Part shown: in pieces, positions 24,957 to 45,299 of the stretch
Numbering within the stretch: position 1 is the stretch's first letter
Layout: every line of letters starts with the position of its first letter
Assembly (NCBI GenBank): GCA_051747585.1
Contig: JBNJGH010000003.1
Span: forward strand, 13,286-77,285
Origin: Candidatus Rifleibacteriota bacterium
GTDB lineage: Bacteria; Muiribacteriota; Ozemobacteria; Ozemobacterales; Ozemobacteraceae
DNA: 64,000 nt
Reading direction: 5' to 3'
Translations under genes and position numbers: made by a program
Notes under the pieces: generated by a model
Told to the model about the DNA's origin: nothing
Database searches by the model: none
Seen by the model: the letters and a program-made list of their open reading frames with translations, nothing else

Positions 24957-25054
24957 AACTTTTTGTTTTATTGGAATGCTGATAATACTGTTTATTGATT
25001 ATTTTGTCATCAACCCTTTCGCTCAACTGAAGAATACTGAACAAAAAACCAGAT

Positions 25055-25421
25055 ATTCTCGGTCAATTATTATCAGCTGGTTACCAAAATTTTTGGTTTT
25101 ACTTCTTTTTGTCAAATATAGAATTTAAACCACCGAGATCACCGAGGCCACCGAGTGGATTTTTTTATCTTTTTCAGCCGTGGATTGTCCGGGGGACAAT
25201 CAGCCGGCGACTTTTTGTCGCCGGCTTTCCCGGCATAAGCAAGCTCTAAGAAAAACACTGGTGCTTTTCTTAGAGCTTGCTTATGCCGGGAACAAGGCTG
25301 AAAAAGATTCTCTGTGCTGCTCTGTGAACTCTGTGGTTATTTTCTTTGTGGCTTTGAGGCTTAGTGTGAGAAATTTTCTTTTTCTTAAACGAGTTGATGG
25401 TAGCTGACCGAGAATTGCTGA
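25055..25421 (+). repeat. Nested palindromic intergenic element, copy 1 (core cassette 25167-25308)
   Basis: Outer IR attctcggtca/tgaccgagaat; accaccgag/ctctgtggt IR; atctttttcagcc/ggctgaaaaagat IR enclosing three hairpins. Homologous to the copies at 35.6, 40.7 and 42.3 kb. Confidence 0.92.
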
Positions 25422-25457
25422 CAAAAAACTGTTGGTTGTTATTAATCTGTCGGTCTA

Positions 25458-25495: not shown

Positions 25496-27172
25496 ATGCG
25501 CCGCAATGCTGTTTATAAACATAAAGGTTTCACAAAGCTGGCAGATTATTATTACCGTGAAATTTTAAGCAGAAATCCGGTAACCGCCACCTGGCTCGGG
25601 GAGCATTCTTTTGATGGGTTTCTACCGGAAACCGGAGCAGAAGCCATTGAACGCAACAATTCTTTTTTGCGGGAAATGCGAAACGCTTTTCTATCTCTGC
25701 CAGAGGGTGAACTGTCTATCGACGAACGTCTTGATCGAGACATAGCCGTTCATTTTGCTTCGACTCAATTATTTCTAGAAGAAGATCTTCAAAGGTGGAA
25801 AATGGGCCGTGATTTGGCTATGAATATTGGCGATTCTCTCTTTTTACTTTTCACCAGAGACTTTGCCCCTCTCCATGACCGGGCAGAGAAAATGATTTTA
25901 CGCTTGAAGTCTGTTCCTGCCTATCTGATGAGGAGCAAAACCCTTTTTCAAAACGTCCCTGCCCTCTGGGGAGAAATATTCCTGGAATCTATGACTCAGC
26001 TACCAGGATTTATAGAAACAGTTCAACAAAGCATAAGTCCTCGAATTTCTCCCTTGCTGGCAGATGAATTCGAGAAAGCTGCAGCTAGCGCCAAAAAAGC
26101 AATTGCCGAGTTCAAAAACTGGTTTACCCATGCCATAATGCCTAAAGCTGAACATGACTGGGCAATGGGAGAAAATGCTTTTCAAGCCTATCTTGGCATA
26201 ATTAAAACCGGTTTAAACCAGAGTGAAATTCTTGACATTGCCGATAAGACAGCCCAACAAGCAAGAATCGAGCTCGAACTTTTAACTGACGAAATTTTAG
26301 GAAAAAGCACAGGAAGAGCTGCGGGAGCCAGGAAAGAAGCTCTTAAAAGAATCAGACACCATTGTCCTGCAAACTTTGAAGTCGCATTGGCAACCTACCG
26401 AGATGCCATAAAAAAATGCCGTGAGTTTGTAAAAACTTCAAGCTTTGCAACTCTTCCCGAAAATGAAGAGCTTGAAATCATGGAAACCCCTGATTTCATG
26501 TCACATTTAATTCCATTCTCTGCCTATATTGGACCTGAAAGGCATGCAAAAATTCAAAAAGGAATCTACCTTCTCACCCGGGATAAACAGGGATCAAATT
26601 CAAGCAGATATAACTATGCTGAAATTGCAAATGCAGCCTTACACGAAGGATACCCGGGGCATCATCTTCAGTTAACCGGTCAAAATCTTCATCCCGGAAA
26701 AATCAGGATTTTTGCTGAAAGTCTTGAAATGATAGAAGGATGGGCGCACTATTGCGAAGACCAGTTAAAAGACAAAGGCTTTTATAAATCTAAAGAGGAA
26801 GCCTTTACCCACGCTCTTGACCAATTATTTAACGCGGCCCGGCTGAAAATTGACATTAATTTGCAATGCAAAACCTGGAACTTTGACAAAGCCATGCAGT
26901 TTTTAATGGAAGAAGCAGGAATAGACAAAGCCTCTGCTTCTGCAGAGCTCAAAAGGTATTCACAGAGTCCAGGATGTCAGTTAAGCTACATCGTAGGAAA
27001 AGAGCTTTTAAATGACTTAAAACATAGCATGAAGAATAAATTGCAAAACGATTTTTGCGAAAAAGACTTTCACGATTTAATAGTCTATGAAGGCAGTATA
27101 CCAACTTTCATGGCAAGAAAATATTACCCGGAAATTCTTGAGCAAAATCGCAAATCAACCGGCAGGACATGA
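25496..27172 (+). CDS. DUF885 family putative metallopeptidase
   Basis: NPVTATWLG, HEGYPGHHLQ, EGWAHYCE, PGCQLSY..G. Confidence 0.9.
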   Translation: MRRNAVYKHKGFTKLADYYYREILSRNPVTATWLGEHSFDGFLPETGAEAIERNNSFLREMRNAFLSLPEGELSIDERLDRDIAVHFASTQLFLEEDLQRWKMGRDLAMNIGDSLFLLFTRDFAPLHDRAEKMILRLKSVPAYLMRSKTLFQNVPALWGEIFLESMTQLPGFIETVQQSISPRISPLLADEFEKAAASAKKAIAEFKNWFTHAIMPKAEHDWAMGENAFQAYLGIIKTGLNQSEILDIADKTAQQARIELELLTDEILGKSTGRAAGARKEALKRIRHHCPANFEVALATYRDAIKKCREFVKTSSFATLPENEELEIMETPDFMSHLIPFSAYIGPERHAKIQKGIYLLTRDKQGSNSSRYNYAEIANAALHEGYPGHHLQLTGQNLHPGKIRIFAESLEMIEGWAHYCEDQLKDKGFYKSKEEAFTHALDQLFNAARLKIDINLQCKTWNFDKAMQFLMEEAGIDKASASAELKRYSQSPGCQLSYIVGKELLNDLKHSMKNKLQNDFCEKDFHDLIVYEGSIPTFMARKYYPEILEQNRKSTGRT

Positions 27173-35555: not shown

Positions 35556-35880
35556 TCAGCAATTCTCAGTGAACTGTTATTAGCTGGTTTTTAAAATCTT
35601 TGGTTTTATTTCTTTCTGTCAAATATAGAATTTAAACCACCGAGATCACTGAGGCCACCGAGTGGATTGTTTTATCTTTTTCAGCCTTGTTCCCGGCAGC
35701 AGCAAGCCCTCAGAAAAACATGAGTGCTTTTCTGAGGGCTTGCTGCTGCCGGGAAAGCCGGGCGGTGAAACCGCCGGCTGATTGTCCCCAGGACAATCAG
35801 CCGGCTGAAAAAGATGCTCTGTGATTCTCTGAGAGCTCTGTGGTTAATTTCTTTGCGGCTTTGAGGCTTGGTGGTGTGAG
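35556..35880 (+). repeat. Nested palindromic element, copy 2 (core 35674-35815, inverted relative to copy 1)
   Basis: Flanks nearly identical to copy 1 (gtcaaatatagaatttaaaccaccgagatcac...), but hairpin order is reversed. Confidence 0.92.
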
Positions 35881-40578: not shown

Positions 40579-40672
40579 CTTATTAATATTATCACCCGCA
40601 TTGCGTGCAAACAACCAATTTTAGATCAGTAATTCCCGGCCAAAGAAAAATCGACTGCTTTTAAGAATGAAA

Positions 40673-41211
40673 ATGCATCACACTAAGCCTCAGAGCCACG
40701 GCGTTCACAAAGAAGAAATAAAATAAAAAAAGTGCATCTCGCAAAGATCGCCAGGTTCGCTAAGTCCGCAACGAAGAAATATTTCAACAAGCTTCAGACT
40801 TTTTCATTACAAATTCTTAGTATATTTTTAACCACAGAGCCCGCAGAGCTGCACAGAGAATCTTTTCAGCCATTGTTCCGTTTGTCAACAAGGGTTCAGA
40901 AAAACACTGGTGTTTTTCTGAACCCTTGCTGACAAACGGAAAGCCGGACGGTGAAACCGCCGGCTGATTGTCCCATGGACAATCAAGGGCAGAAAAAGAA
41001 AAAAACAACTCGGTGACCTCAGTGATCTCTGTGGTTTAAATTCTTTGCGCTCTTTGCGGCTTGGCGAGATGTTTTTTTCAGGATTCGACAACGATGACGG
41101 GCAGGATGCCCTAATGCTGGGGCACCTGAGGATGCAGTGCGCCCCAATGCAACGATTACGATAACCGCTTCGCTGAGCACGAGCACGATTTTTCTTTTGT
41201 GTGAGGCAATT
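40673..41211 (-). repeat. Nested palindromic element, copy 3 (core ~40860-40998); left direct repeat of the Rpn gene
   Basis: Aligns over most of its length with 42342-42907 apart from the inverted core; ends at the Rpn stop codon. Confidence 0.92.
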
Positions 41212-42217
41212 ATTTTTTGCGGGTTTTTTTGGTTTTTCGCTTTGCTTTATATTTGCCGGTTGGTTCTGAGACTTTGTTCTTTTCTGCCAGCTGTTCGATT
41301 TGTTTAATAGAAAGCTCGGTAATTTCACTTATTTCTTCAAAAGACTTGCCCCTGGCAATCATTTTAAGAGCAATTTTCTCGCATCTTAATTGATCACCCT
41401 TTTCTATACCTTCTTCAAGGCCTTCTTTGCGGCCTTCTTTGCGGCCTTCTTTGCGGCCTTCTTCAAGGCCCTCGAATTTGCCGACACCATAAGTTGAGTC
41501 AACCATGCTGGCCTGGTAACTGAGATCGGCAAGGTAAGCTTCGTATTCCTGGCGCTCTTTATCGCTCATTTTTAAAATGTCGAGCTTTTTTTGCGCCTTT
41601 TTTAAGCCCTTAGCCTTGAAATTGTCTTTGATTTTTCCGTTTTTGAGAAAATATATCCATTCATCGAGGGTATTTTTTGCCACATCGTCAAAGTTTTTGA
41701 CCTTGATTACATACATTTCAGGAAAAAGCTGTGAAGGATGGTCTTTTTTGAGGCATTTTCGCTGCAGCGGACTCAGGGTAAGCTCTTCGTTTTTATGAAC
41801 GCCCTTAAAAGTGGTAGTGCCATGATAGATATAATCGCTACCCTTGCCGAGATCGAAATAAACTATGGCTACAGAAATAACCTTAACTATTTCAGAGTAT
41901 TTCTGACCCTCTTTAAAGTGCTCGGTTATGGCTTTGGCAACCCCGAACAAAACCCGCTGCAAAAAGTCTATTTCCCTTTGATATTGAACCTCAATTAAAA
42001 TTATTTCGCCTTTGTGGGTTTTGCATTTTAAATCGAGCCGGCTGAATTTATCATGTGATGTTTCTTTGTTGCTTTCGCTTTCAAGAATCTCGACAATGGT
42101 GATTTTATTGCCAAGCAACTCAGTCAGAAAACCTTCTAAAATATCAAAATTGGCTTTACTGCGTAAAAGCCGTTTCATCGCCCAGTCAAAACTGACAAGT
42201 TTTCGAGTTGAAGCCAT
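41210..42217 (-). CDS. Rpn family recombination-promoting nuclease / PD-(D/E)XK putative transposase
   Basis: SFDWAMKRLL, RLDLKC....IILIEVQ, LDEWIYFLK, GxEE/GRKE repeats, IALKMI..G...EEISEITELS. Confidence 0.92.
   Translation of the reverse strand: MASTRKLVSFDWAMKRLLRSKANFDILEGFLTELLGNKITIVEILESESNKETSHDKFSRLDLKCKTHKGEIILIEVQYQREIDFLQRVLFGVAKAITEHFKEGQKYSEIVKVISVAIVYFDLGKGSDYIYHGTTTFKGVHKNEELTLSPLQRKCLKKDHPSQLFPEMYVIKVKNFDDVAKNTLDEWIYFLKNGKIKDNFKAKGLKKAQKKLDILKMSDKERQEYEAYLADLSYQASMVDSTYGVGKFEGLEEGRKEGRKEGRKEGLEEGIEKGDQLRCEKIALKMIARGKSFEEISEITELSIKQIEQLAEKNKVSEPTGKYKAKRKTKKTRKK
41409..41468 (-). repeat. Intragenic 12-bp tandem repeat (5 units) in the Rpn gene
   Basis: ccttcttcaagg + 3x ccttctttgcgg + ccttcttcaagg, encoding GLEE-GRKE-GRKE-GRKE-GLEE. 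Confidence 0.9.
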
Positions 42218-42279: not shown

Positions 42280-42341
42280 ATTTACCTTAAATTCCCAGCA
42301 ACATGCGTGTTAACTGCTATCAGCTGCTCTCAAGAAAGAAT

Positions 42342-42907
42342 ATGCATCACGCTAAGCCTCAGAGCCACGAGGTTCACAAAGAAGAAATCAAATAAAAAAA
42401 GTGCATCTCGCAAAGATCGCCAGGTTCGCTAAGTCCGCAATAAAGAAATGTTTCAACAAGCTTCGGATTTTTTCATTTCAAATTCATAGTAGATTATAAA
42501 CCACAGAGTCCTCAAAGGTGCACAGAGGATCTTTTTCAGCCTTGGATTGTCCTTTGGACAATCAGCCGGCGGTTTCACCGTCCGGCTTTCCCTTCATTAA
42601 TAACAGGGTAGAAAAGCACCAGTGTTTTTCTACCCTGTTATTAATGAAGGGAACAATGGCTGAAAAAGATTAAGAAATCAGCTCTGTGATCTCGGTGATC
42701 TCTGTGGTTTAAATTCTTAGCGCTCTTTGCGGCTTGGCGAGATGTTTTTTTTCAGGATTCGACAACGATGACGGGCAGGATGCCCTAATGCTGGGGCGCC
42801 TGAGGATGCACTATGCCCCACGATTACGATGACGATTACCGCTTCGCTGAGCACGAGCACGAGCACGAGTTTTCTTTTTGCCTTAGCGGCTTTGGGTGAG
42901 GCAATTA
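42342..42907 (-). repeat. Nested palindromic element, copy 4 (core 42529-42670); right direct repeat of the Rpn gene
   Basis: Same flanks as copy 3 with the core inverted and a different long stem; ends next to the stop of the 42909..45299 gene. Confidence 0.92.
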
Positions 42908-42908
42908 A

Positions 42909-45299
42909 TTAAAGTTCTACTTCGAGTCTTTCGAGGAGAATTGCGAATTCTTCTTTGCCAGGCTTGGAGAAATACATTCTGCGATTTGCATATTTAAAGT
43001 ATGGAAAAAGGCCGAAAGCCTCGGTTCCATCTCGTGATAATACTACCAGCTCAGACTCAGGCAATTCTATGCCTGGTCTTTTATCAGGTTTCAGGGCAAC
43101 GGCAAGAGGCCCGGTCAGATCTGCAAAAGGCACTTTGGTACCTTTAGGCGTCTTCATAACTATTGAATTGTTTAAAATTGATTTAGTACCCCGCAAAATT
43201 TCAGCAAGCCCTTCAACTGCCTGGGGAATAGTTTCGTTCAAAGGCTCGATAGGCTGCTTCAAATACTCGCGTAGTTCGCGCAACATCATTAAAGGGTTAG
43301 TATCAGATGAGTCGGAAAGAATTTTGGACAAAGAAAAGGTAAAAAATACCGGGTTTTCTTTTGACTGCTTCATTGCCAAAGCAAAATTATGCAGACAACG
43401 TAAAGCGGTTGGCCCGATCAAATGACCTTTAAGACAGTCTTTAACGCTTTTTTCAAGCATTGCTGAGGGCGGAGCAAAAAACATACAAGATTGCAAAAAA
43501 CACAAATTAAGATAGGCAATCAGATTATCGCTGACTTTGTTTATAACGTTTAGCAGTTGCTCTTCCGATGCAGGTTTAAAAAGCACCGAGAAAGGCGTTG
43601 AAATAAAAGAAGGAAATCTCGAGATAATAGTTTGAGCCGCAGGAATTGGTTGGATTTTGATTAAATTTTTGCTTTCTCTGGCGGGTCGCTCTTTTGACTT
43701 TGTCTTTTTTTCAGGAGCATCTGTTGGTAATTTTTTGGGCGGCGGTTTGATAGTAGTCGCTTCTTTTTGCTCTTCTTTTTTTTCAACTTCCGCCTCAGCC
43801 TTTTCAGATACTGATTCTTTTATATCGCCCTTTTGATCTTCTAAAGAAGCGTTCTTTACTTCTTTTTCACTGGCTTCTTCTGTTTTTTGGTTTTCGTCTG
43901 TTTTTTGGACTTCAGCAGCTTCTTGCAGAGCTAATTCATTCTGAATTTCAATTTCTTCTGTGCCACTATCATCTATCTGTTGACTGATTTCTTCAAAATC
44001 TACATTCTCTATTTCAACGCTTTCAATCTGGGAACTTTCGTGCTTTTTAGAAGATTGTTCCTCTGCTTCAGATTGAGCGAGTGAATCATCATCAGCCTTA
44101 TTCGCAACAACCGAGTCATCTTCTAGTTTTTTCTCATCGTTTTCTTTTTGTGGTTCTGCCTCTATAATCTCTGCGTTATCATCTATTTCGCTGATTGCAC
44201 TCTGCTCTTTTTCAAATTCAAGATTTTCCTTCAGGGCGTCATCTTTTTCTATAACCAACTCTTCGGTATCTTTCTCGTCTGTCTTATCCTCTGCTTCATC
44301 AGAAAATGTCTCTACCGAATTAGCAAAATCTTGTATTTCTTCGGGGCTGGTCTGAGCAAGTTCTGCTTCAATTTTTTCATTTTCTGCTCGTTTCTTTTCT
44401 TCTTCTTCCATGCGCTTTCGTCTTTTTTCTTCCATTTCCTGTTTGAACGAGACGAACTCCCCGTCTTTTTTTTCGTCAGCCTGGGCCTGGGCCTTATCTT
44501 TAGAGGCATCTGCTTTGCTCTCTATCTTATTTTTTTGAAGTCTTTCTCGCTTTCGCTTACTTACAAAAGGAATGGAATCAAGTTCCTTTAAGGCTTCTCT
44601 TGCTTTTTTTGCAACCAGAGGATGGTTATGATACTGAACCTTGGCAATAACTTTTCTAAGATCATTATTTATTAACAATGGAAGAAAAGGGGCAACATTC
44701 TGCAAAACCCATTCATCCGGAGAACCCAAAGCATAATCCAGAATAATTTTCATCTGTTCCGAAGGCAGAGCTTTAATTACTTTAAAAGCAGTTTCAGAAA
44801 CAAGCTTATCCGCATCAGTTACCAGGTTCAGCACCTGAGCAAAATGGGTAGGTCTGCCACTGTTAACTGCTACCTGGCATGCCATCGCTCTAACTTCCGG
44901 GTCAATGTGGTTTAGGCAGGCATCCATAAAGTCGTGTGCTTTTGTTGGTATTGTTTCTCCCATTGCGCCCATGGTTGCTATCAACATCTGACTACTGCCA
45001 TGGGTTGCCAGGTATTCCCACATTTTCTGATTCATTTCTGTGGTTCCGGACTTTCGCTGTAAATGCTCGAGGATCTGGCGTTCTAAAGACGGGTCTCGCG
45101 GAAAAGCTTCAAGAGTAAGACAGGTCTGGGCAATCAATATGGCGATTTCTTCGTTCTTTTCGTATATCGCGGCTTCTTTGAGGTCGGGAATTAGATTGTG
45201 CCGACGATCAAACAAAATTCGATACACGGCTTCTTTTCTAACATCGGGTTCGGTGCTGTAAAGCCGTGAAATTATTTCTTTTTCCCTGAGATTTCGCAT
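42909..45299 (-). CDS. HEAT-repeat protein with long acidic low-complexity linker
   Basis: PDVRKEAV, DPEVRAMA and PLVAKKAREAL HEAT-like repeats; E/D/K-rich middle; globular C-terminus. Confidence 0.75.
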   Translation of the reverse strand: MRNLREKEIISRLYSTEPDVRKEAVYRILFDRRHNLIPDLKEAAIYEKNEEIAILIAQTCLTLEAFPRDPSLERQILEHLQRKSGTTEMNQKMWEYLATHGSSQMLIATMGAMGETIPTKAHDFMDACLNHIDPEVRAMACQVAVNSGRPTHFAQVLNLVTDADKLVSETAFKVIKALPSEQMKIILDYALGSPDEWVLQNVAPFLPLLINNDLRKVIAKVQYHNHPLVAKKAREALKELDSIPFVSKRKRERLQKNKIESKADASKDKAQAQADEKKDGEFVSFKQEMEEKRRKRMEEEEKKRAENEKIEAELAQTSPEEIQDFANSVETFSDEAEDKTDEKDTEELVIEKDDALKENLEFEKEQSAISEIDDNAEIIEAEPQKENDEKKLEDDSVVANKADDDSLAQSEAEEQSSKKHESSQIESVEIENVDFEEISQQIDDSGTEEIEIQNELALQEAAEVQKTDENQKTEEASEKEVKNASLEDQKGDIKESVSEKAEAEVEKKEEQKEATTIKPPPKKLPTDAPEKKTKSKERPARESKNLIKIQPIPAAQTIISRFPSFISTPFSVLFKPASEEQLLNVINKVSDNLIAYLNLCFLQSCMFFAPPSAMLEKSVKDCLKGHLIGPTALRCLHNFALAMKQSKENPVFFTFSLSKILSDSSDTNPLMMLRELREYLKQPIEPLNETIPQAVEGLAEILRGTKSILNNSIVMKTPKGTKVPFADLTGPLAVALKPDKRPGIELPESELVVLSRDGTEAFGLFPYFKYANRRMYFSKPGKEEFAILLERLEVEL

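Follow-up and report, generated by a model that had tools for sequence, protein, structure and literature searches.

A MITE-type repeat with a four-way-junction core in an uncultured bacterium and the probable arm-to-arm copying of its variable hairpin

The DNA under study, a stretch of 64 kb that was analysed as a whole and is called the window throughout, contains four copies of a palindromic cassette in which a closing repeat encloses three hairpins, A, B and C. This cassette constitutes the central four-way junction of a non-coding repeat that is mobile and of the MITE type; it is not a stand-alone RNA or guide element. With a probability that we put at about 0.6, it forms the palindromic core of a MITE whose hairpin C arms stay matched mainly by arm-to-arm templated copying. 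The most likely mechanism would be template switching, to judge from the sequences of over 100 paralogues of a single mobile element.

Cassette copies in the window

The initial annotation had reported a cassette with a fixed scaffold at four places in the window, and all four copies lie where it had put them: the pattern TTCC-N19-GAAAA-N10-TTTTC-N19-GGAA matches once in each, at hairpin C (Table 1), and these four real matches compare with none in 100 dinucleotide-preserving shuffles. On reading the sequence, the four N19 arms are those quoted earlier, positions 8, 11, 12 and 19 are the sole invariant ones, and the single mismatch belongs to copy 3 only, where it occupies position 9. The earlier description also applies to hairpins A and B and to the closing repeat, although this repeat is degenerate in copy 3. 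The closing repeat measures 13 bp, hairpins A and B are fixed in sequence and hairpin C is long. Folded as single-stranded DNA, copy 1 has an energy of -68.5 kcal/mol (z = -15.9) and shows three hairpins on a closing stem.

The order of the hairpins differs among the window copies, copies 1 and 4 reading A-B-C and copies 2 and 3 reading C-B-A, with the outer arms oriented alike in all four; the right-hand outer MITE arm of copy 2 is truncated. Copies 3 and 4 are embedded in longer units of about 600 bp whose flanks are at least 90% identical; between the two units, 13 of the 19 stem positions differ and the cassettes lie in opposite orientation. Both units are intergenic, each being located upstream of a minus-strand gene.

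Table 1. Coordinates of the features discussed; positions are those of the window except in the last two rows, which refer to other contigs of the assembly
Feature	Position	Strand	Remarks
Cassette copy 1	25167..25308	+	order A-B-C
Copy 1 closing repeat	25167-25179 / 25296-25308
Copy 1 hairpin A	25183-25201
Copy 1 hairpin B	25202-25226
Copy 1 hairpin C	25227-25292
Copy 1 conserved core, ~213 bp	25127..25339		three CCAC(A/C)GAG-type repeats, cassette, three CTCNGTG-type repeats
Complete 371-bp composite MITE with copy 1	25050..25420		CAGA/CAGC-type terminal inverted repeat to ...GAATTGCTG
Left 9-bp target-site duplication (ACAAAAAAC)	25041..25049		adjoins copy 1 MITE
Right 9-bp target-site duplication	25421..25429		adjoins copy 1 MITE
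Cassette copy 2	35674..35815	-	order C-B-A against the same outer arms; hairpin C 35690-35755
Cassette copy 3	40860..41000	-	order C-B-A; hairpin C 40876-40941, one mismatch; closing repeat degenerate
Longer repeat unit around copy 3	40650..41250		common to the copy 4 unit 42320-42930
Cassette copy 4	42529..42670	+	order A-B-C; hairpin C 42588-42653
RAYT-type Y1 transposase gene	C196:4569-5204 (L011/L062)		5' end cut by contig end
RAYT 62-aa fragment	C279:2717-2902		94% identical to the C196 protein

A genome-wide family with a conserved core

The genome that was searched is a 4.14-Mb assembly of 330 contigs with a GC content of 40.7%. A structural scan returned 110 candidate hairpins, one of them unrelated, which leaves at least 109 hairpin C loci genome-wide; truncated copies at contig ends come on top of this number. 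Both closing arms are found at 105 of the 109 loci, the other four comprising three that are cut by contig ends and one with a mutated arm. A search of the genome for arm pairs without a cassette found none and gave three short unrelated matches. The parsed set consists of 101 cassettes whose length, taken between the inner 11 nt of the closing repeat, is 137-141 nt, and only seven of them overlap a long open frame. Four records from two tandem C-type loci were set aside; at these loci (C52:1344-1501 and C92:8223-8382) two long hairpins of the C type stand in tandem between the closing repeats and replace hairpins A and B.

A diversity profile of 25 subfamily representatives delimits a core of about 215 bp, made up of the cassette, preceded by three repeats of the CCACAGAG type and followed by three of the CTCNGTGG type. 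Among these representatives the core is near-invariant except at a few free positions, in the loop of hairpin A, at the junction bases and in the stem of hairpin C. In 19 core-only copies the flanks are mostly TTAA- or TAA-like on both sides, without a clear duplication.

The wider family modifies the description of hairpin C that four copies had suggested. The TTCC taken to be fixed is not so genome-wide, where the paired variable part runs over TT, 21 nt and GAAAA and forms a 28-bp stem. The stem length, described as constant, is increased by one extra pair in 6 of 30 aligned representatives. Nor is the stem specific to each copy: it is specific to the subfamily, the 101 parsed cassettes falling into 27 stem clusters with 46, 16, 6, 3, 3, 3, 2, 2 and 2 members and 18 singletons.

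Terminal repeats, target duplication and an empty site

Terminal inverted repeats (TIRs), CAGCAATTCTCGGTCA... on one side and ...TGACCGAGAATTGCTG on the other, delimit the cassette-bearing elements, which measure about 371 bp. Both ends are recognised with at most three mismatches in 43 of the 101 cassettes, and neither is detectable in 22. When the element is taken from CAGC to GCTG, which gives sizes of mostly 367-372 bp, 9-bp direct repeats adjoin it perfectly in 16 of 63 TIR pairs and with one mismatch in a further nine. An empty site is available at the locus of copy 1, the one locus where both the filled and the empty form are seen. There, a metagenomic DNA contig of 1250 nt from sequencing run X1 joins position 25036 to position 25421 and skips 384 nt, and the five letters between the two sides rebuild the left flank, leaving one copy of the 9-mer. 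Other cassette variants are met at the ends of contigs from three DNA runs of three studies (X1, X2 and X4); the sequencing runs each cover at most 0.29 of the window stretch.

The element is also small, non-coding and present in at least 109 copies. That it corresponds to no described element, as suggested earlier, is correct only for its sequence; because of its TIRs, its 9-bp target duplication, its copy number and the empty site it is to be classed as a MITE-type mobile repeat. A 257-bp deletion derivative of the MITE, at C5:57153-57409, retains a perfect 9-bp duplication; its deletion extends from the hairpin C loop into the outer arm and took place at a shared CTTTTCTGAA string.

No autonomous element with the same ends was recognised in the genome, where no TIR pair of more than 600 bp has a duplication; the longer TIR pairs considered as a possible autonomous partner were rejected as chance words inside genes. 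The DDE_Tnp_1 model has two matches in the genome, of which the full-length one (on contig C47) lacks MITE ends, and the DDE_3 and Transposase_mut models have none in this genome. An autonomous partner may be missing from the assembly of 330 contigs.

The genome encodes a single RAYT-type Y1 (HUH) transposase, and the core could in principle be moved by this enzyme as single-stranded DNA, in the manner of a REPIN, with the hairpins as recognition sites. The palindromic architecture, with a variable hairpin constrained in structure only, is indeed REPIN-like. The gene is represented by one Y1_Tnp match on contig C196, accompanied by a 62-aa fragment on C279, and the C196 protein, whose N-terminus is lost at the contig end, scores 71.7 bits against the NCBIfam model REP_Tyr_transpos (cut-off 80). 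However, neither contig carries cassette, arm or TIR motifs; the 3' flank of the gene carries other repeats, and the contig breaks off before the 5' flank. Moreover, RAYT orthologues are present in 20 of 40 relatives and in four of five genomes of the same genus, whereas the cassette covariance model, applied with strict filters to the best 37 candidates per genome, gave no match in any of 86 further genomes from the phylum. Insertion of the composite element duplicates 9 bp of the target, which IS200/IS605-type Y1 transposition is not known to do. Since the repeat neither flanks the RAYT gene nor is inherited together with it, we do not class the element as a REPIN, and mobilisation by this transposase appears quite improbable.

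Pairing and rate of change in hairpin C

The stem of hairpin C is not hypervariable: it changes like unconstrained sequence, but in pairs. Averaged over all pairs of the 25 representatives, the difference amounts to 0.074 over 119 constrained core positions, 0.547 over the hairpin C stem and 0.595 over 29 free core positions, the last figure being biased upward by the choice of these positions for high diversity. Within the 46-copy subfamily, where divergence was measured on 37 copies with full flanks, 2.3% of the stem sites depart from the consensus; for the adjoining scaffold the figures are 3.1% on one side and 2.7% on the other.

Pairing is nearly complete, with mismatches at 36 of 2828 pairs and perfect stems in 72 of the 101 cassettes. 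In an alignment of 30 representatives, 96.5% of the cells are paired as opposed to 83.7% in shuffles, and both-sided changes affect 219 cells as opposed to 54; none of 500 shuffles reached the observed values, and pairing falls to 36-50% when the partner arm is slid along. The young 46-copy subfamily displays 22 paired changes and 6 single ones, the former amounting to 14 distinct position/base events of which 10 are found in one copy only. From a per-site divergence of about 3%, a back-of-envelope estimate puts the expected number of chance double hits at about 0.3.

The mismatches of the 101 copies divide into 16 of the G.T type, 11 of the A.C type and 9 others, without strand bias. An RNA transcribed from one strand is expected to tolerate G.U and not A.C, and the counts of G.T and A.C therefore indicate that pairing operates at the level of DNA, not of RNA. 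The base pairs themselves are skewed when the 101 copies are read in A-B-C orientation, C-G being found 766 times and G-C 231 times, a skew owed in part to the 46-copy subfamily; A-T (560) and T-A (536) are balanced.

Inversions of loop and cassette

Hairpin C and the cassette that contains it have both undergone inversion. In the 46-copy subfamily the 10-nt loop reads ACACGAGTGC in 27 copies and its reverse complement in nine, and three copies carry symmetrised hybrids in which the mismatched closing pair has become G-C. The cassette as a whole lies in one orientation relative to its arms in 62 copies and in the other in 39, and both orientations are represented in five of the nine multi-member subfamilies.

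Orientations so common and so widely distributed would be expected of a programmed invertible switch, in which a site-specific recombinase flips the cassette at the 13-bp closing repeats and thereby regulates its neighbours, but we find this scarcely credible. The second, nested level of inversion, at which the loop of hairpin C is reversed within its stem, points instead to a general process acting on palindromes. In addition, the contigs of four runs, a form of data in which rare variants are dropped, show no inversion joint at copy 1, and the window copies are found in all gene contexts.

Arm-to-arm copying and selection

Arm copying, by template switching or fill-in, was one of the readings proposed in the initial annotation, and it is the one that fits best: changes in the young subfamily are predominantly paired, pairing in the family is strictly Watson-Crick, the stem changes at about the rate of the free positions, and inversions of loop and cassette are common. 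We favour it because paired changes, a perfected stem end and an inverted spacer are the published footprints of template switching. Template switching yields compensatory changes in one step together with loop inversions (PMC8794818) and homogenises arms with inversion of the spacer (PMC8604942), and a single event suffices to perfect an imperfect inverted repeat or to invert its spacer (PMC8794818, PMC8604942, PMC7202029). In the present element, the paired changes, the symmetrised pair that closes the loop and the inversions of loop and cassette resemble template-switch mutation at quasi-palindromes, a process shown in reporters and RNA genes, whereas here it would be deduced from the comparison of paralogous copies, more than 100 in number.

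On this reading, the fixed parts of the core would serve as cis sites for copying or mobilisation, only intact copies leaving descendants, and hairpin C would be needed merely as a 28-bp duplex or spacer. Intramolecular template switching at the quasi-palindrome, or an equivalent hairpin-templated repair, would keep the two arms complementary by either erasing a new mutation or writing the same mutation onto the opposite arm. The same process would invert the loop of hairpin C and, via the closing repeat, the whole cassette, and an exchange of modules between copies would add mosaicism.

The main rival to arm copying is selection on the source copies, according to which the element needs the hairpin in cis for its mobilisation, so that progeny come only from source copies whose stem is intact. 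The paired changes would then be ordinary compensatory substitutions, fixed in the source lineages without any copying between arms. Selection of this kind clearly acts on the scaffold, as seen in the difference between constrained and free positions (0.074 against 0.595). It would also account for the inheritance of stem types within subfamilies and for a stem divergence that tracks the rest of the core (Spearman 0.46-0.49). Compensatory changes in the spacers of REPINs are read in this way, as a constraint on length and hairpin formation, in the REPIN paper (PMC3116915). We nevertheless consider it unlikely that selection suffices. Compensatory evolution by way of a disfavoured intermediate should be far slower than neutral change, and the stem evolves about as fast as the free positions and, in the young subfamily, about as fast as the neighbouring scaffold. 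That 10 of the 14 distinct paired changes are each confined to one copy argues against it as well, and decay after insertion should produce mostly single changes, yet 72 of the 101 stems are perfect. Finally, selection alone leaves the inversions of loop and cassette unexplained.

Point change followed by arm copying does not account for every stem; it fails for the pair C132 and C136 and for window copies 3 and 4. C132 and C136 differ by 3.2% outside the stem and by 62% within it, their arms being near-identical, free positions included. Unrelated stems in near-identical arms imply either an exchange of modules, with the scaffold providing homology, or repeated insertion into the same context.

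A further possibility, which we regard as rather improbable, is that arm matching and flip/flop are built into the copying of the element, the hairpin being re-templated at each event in a folded single-stranded intermediate. Re-templating by fold-back or hairpin-primed synthesis would amount to a rolling-hairpin-like step for a bacterial chromosomal repeat and, if true, would explain together the perfect stems, both kinds of inversion and the exchange of stems between identical arms. The terminal hairpins of parvoviruses consist of a closing stem with small internal hairpins, occur in flip and flop orientations relative to the flanking sequence and, as the ends of a linear genome, are copied by hairpin transfer. 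The cassette shares with them the closing stem and the internal hairpins found in two inverted orientations; unlike them, it lies as a module within a chromosomal repeat and has no linked Rep-like nickase.

The question of a structured RNA or guide

The initial annotation had also envisaged a single-stranded DNA or RNA with a guide- or barcode-like segment. Were the cassette transcribed as a structured non-coding RNA, or as a guide or barcode whose variable hairpin C arm specifies a target or address, the very strong covariation (219 against 54 both-sided cells) and the fixed stem length would find a ready explanation. A 151-nt contig from a metatranscriptome library (run X3) extends over 25266-25382, part of the element, and may derive from this or another locus and from RNA or carried-over DNA. 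Contigs of 151 nt from the same run are identical to the gene downstream of copy 1 (25988-26293); the organism or a near-identical strain is present in the X3 sample.

An RNA is nevertheless very unlikely. G.T mismatches are not favoured over A.C (16 and 11), and the element occurs in both orientations with the cassette flipped within identical arms. A BLAST search of the genome with the 62 distinct 21-nt arms, all hairpins being masked, yielded nothing outside the element that exceeded the level of five shuffled sets; all strong extra arm matches, considered as targets, were rejected as truncated or deleted copies of the element. Neither the scaffold pattern nor three of the four window arms have a match in viral contigs. 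A guide or barcode is hardly compatible with a stem common to 46 copies; without arm targets and with stems shared by so many copies, the guide- or barcode-like segment finds no support. Rfam has no match at gathering score in the whole window and, at E<=1, returns miRNA-precursor models only, on both strands, scoring no more than 48.7 bits where the cut-offs are 77-100. The cassette is neither a guide or barcode nor a dedicated structured RNA.

Comparison with known repeats and significance

The closest known systems, in working terms, are the REPINs, followed by bcr1 and the Chunjie MITE. REPINs of Pseudomonas and enterobacteria are, like the present element, short non-coding palindromic repeats with about 100 or more copies, and here too there is a single RAYT-type gene. 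Their ends are conserved and their middle part is constrained only in length and hairpin formation, with common compensatory changes, as set out in PMC3116915. In contrast to REPINs, the variable hairpin is here one of three on a four-way junction, each arm carries three short repeats, many copies form part of a MITE that is bounded by TIRs and has a 9-bp duplication, and the repeat found on the RAYT contigs is a different one.

The bcr1 repeat of the Bacillus cereus group is a mobile element of about 155 bp with 5-bp direct repeats and a cruciform-like structure showing compensatory changes; it is described as transcribed and its structure is read at the RNA level in the review PMC3184786. 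Compared by these descriptions only, the present element differs from bcr1 in its 9-bp duplication, its three hairpins and its lack of wobble bias. The Chunjie MITE of Geobacter uraniireducens is described in the same review (PMC3184786) as an element of 178-235 bp with TIRs, direct repeats of 9 bp and a predicted fold of great stability, features that, again by description only, recall the MITE studied here. A sequence-free covarying hairpin or a flip-flop core, as found here, is not reported for Chunjie in the passages of PMC3184786 that describe it.

As a genomic parasite of an uncultured bacterium the element is of an ordinary kind, and its value is that of a data set, in which more than 100 paralogous copies combine a sequence-free but paired 28-bp hairpin with a fixed scaffold and nested inversions. 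As such it offers a natural and well-replicated readout of how inverted repeats stay perfect, usable to measure the rates of template switching or arm conversion against that of point mutation, which are otherwise studied in reporters and in slowly evolving RNA genes. It also calls for caution, as the very strong covariation observed here does not indicate a functional RNA.

Occurrence elsewhere and neighbouring repeats

The scaffold pattern has no match in the species-representative genome collection, and BLAST of copy 1 against 40 relatives returned a short arm motif only. The literature searched yielded no description of this particular element. A scan of metagenomes gave three loci, one of which, on contig L060, is a true copy with the full core and yet another stem, in flanks that have no counterpart in this genome; the two others were rejected as chance matches, one of them inside a coding region. 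A motif resembling the outer arm, CTCACAC.AAG.CACAAAG.CACAAAGAAA, has 18 matches, without a cassette, in a distant relative from another family of the same phylum (G030; L002, L007).

Both RAYT loci are flanked by a different repeat family, with motifs of the CGATTACGA...CACGAGCAC and GGGACACCTTA types, which may be the REP of this RAYT itself. A CGATTACGA...GAGCACGAGCACGA-type repeat of the RAYT surroundings is also located directly to the right of window copies 3 and 4 (about 41090-41210 and 42790-42900), and strings like it flank several further cassette copies on contigs C14, C175 and C207.
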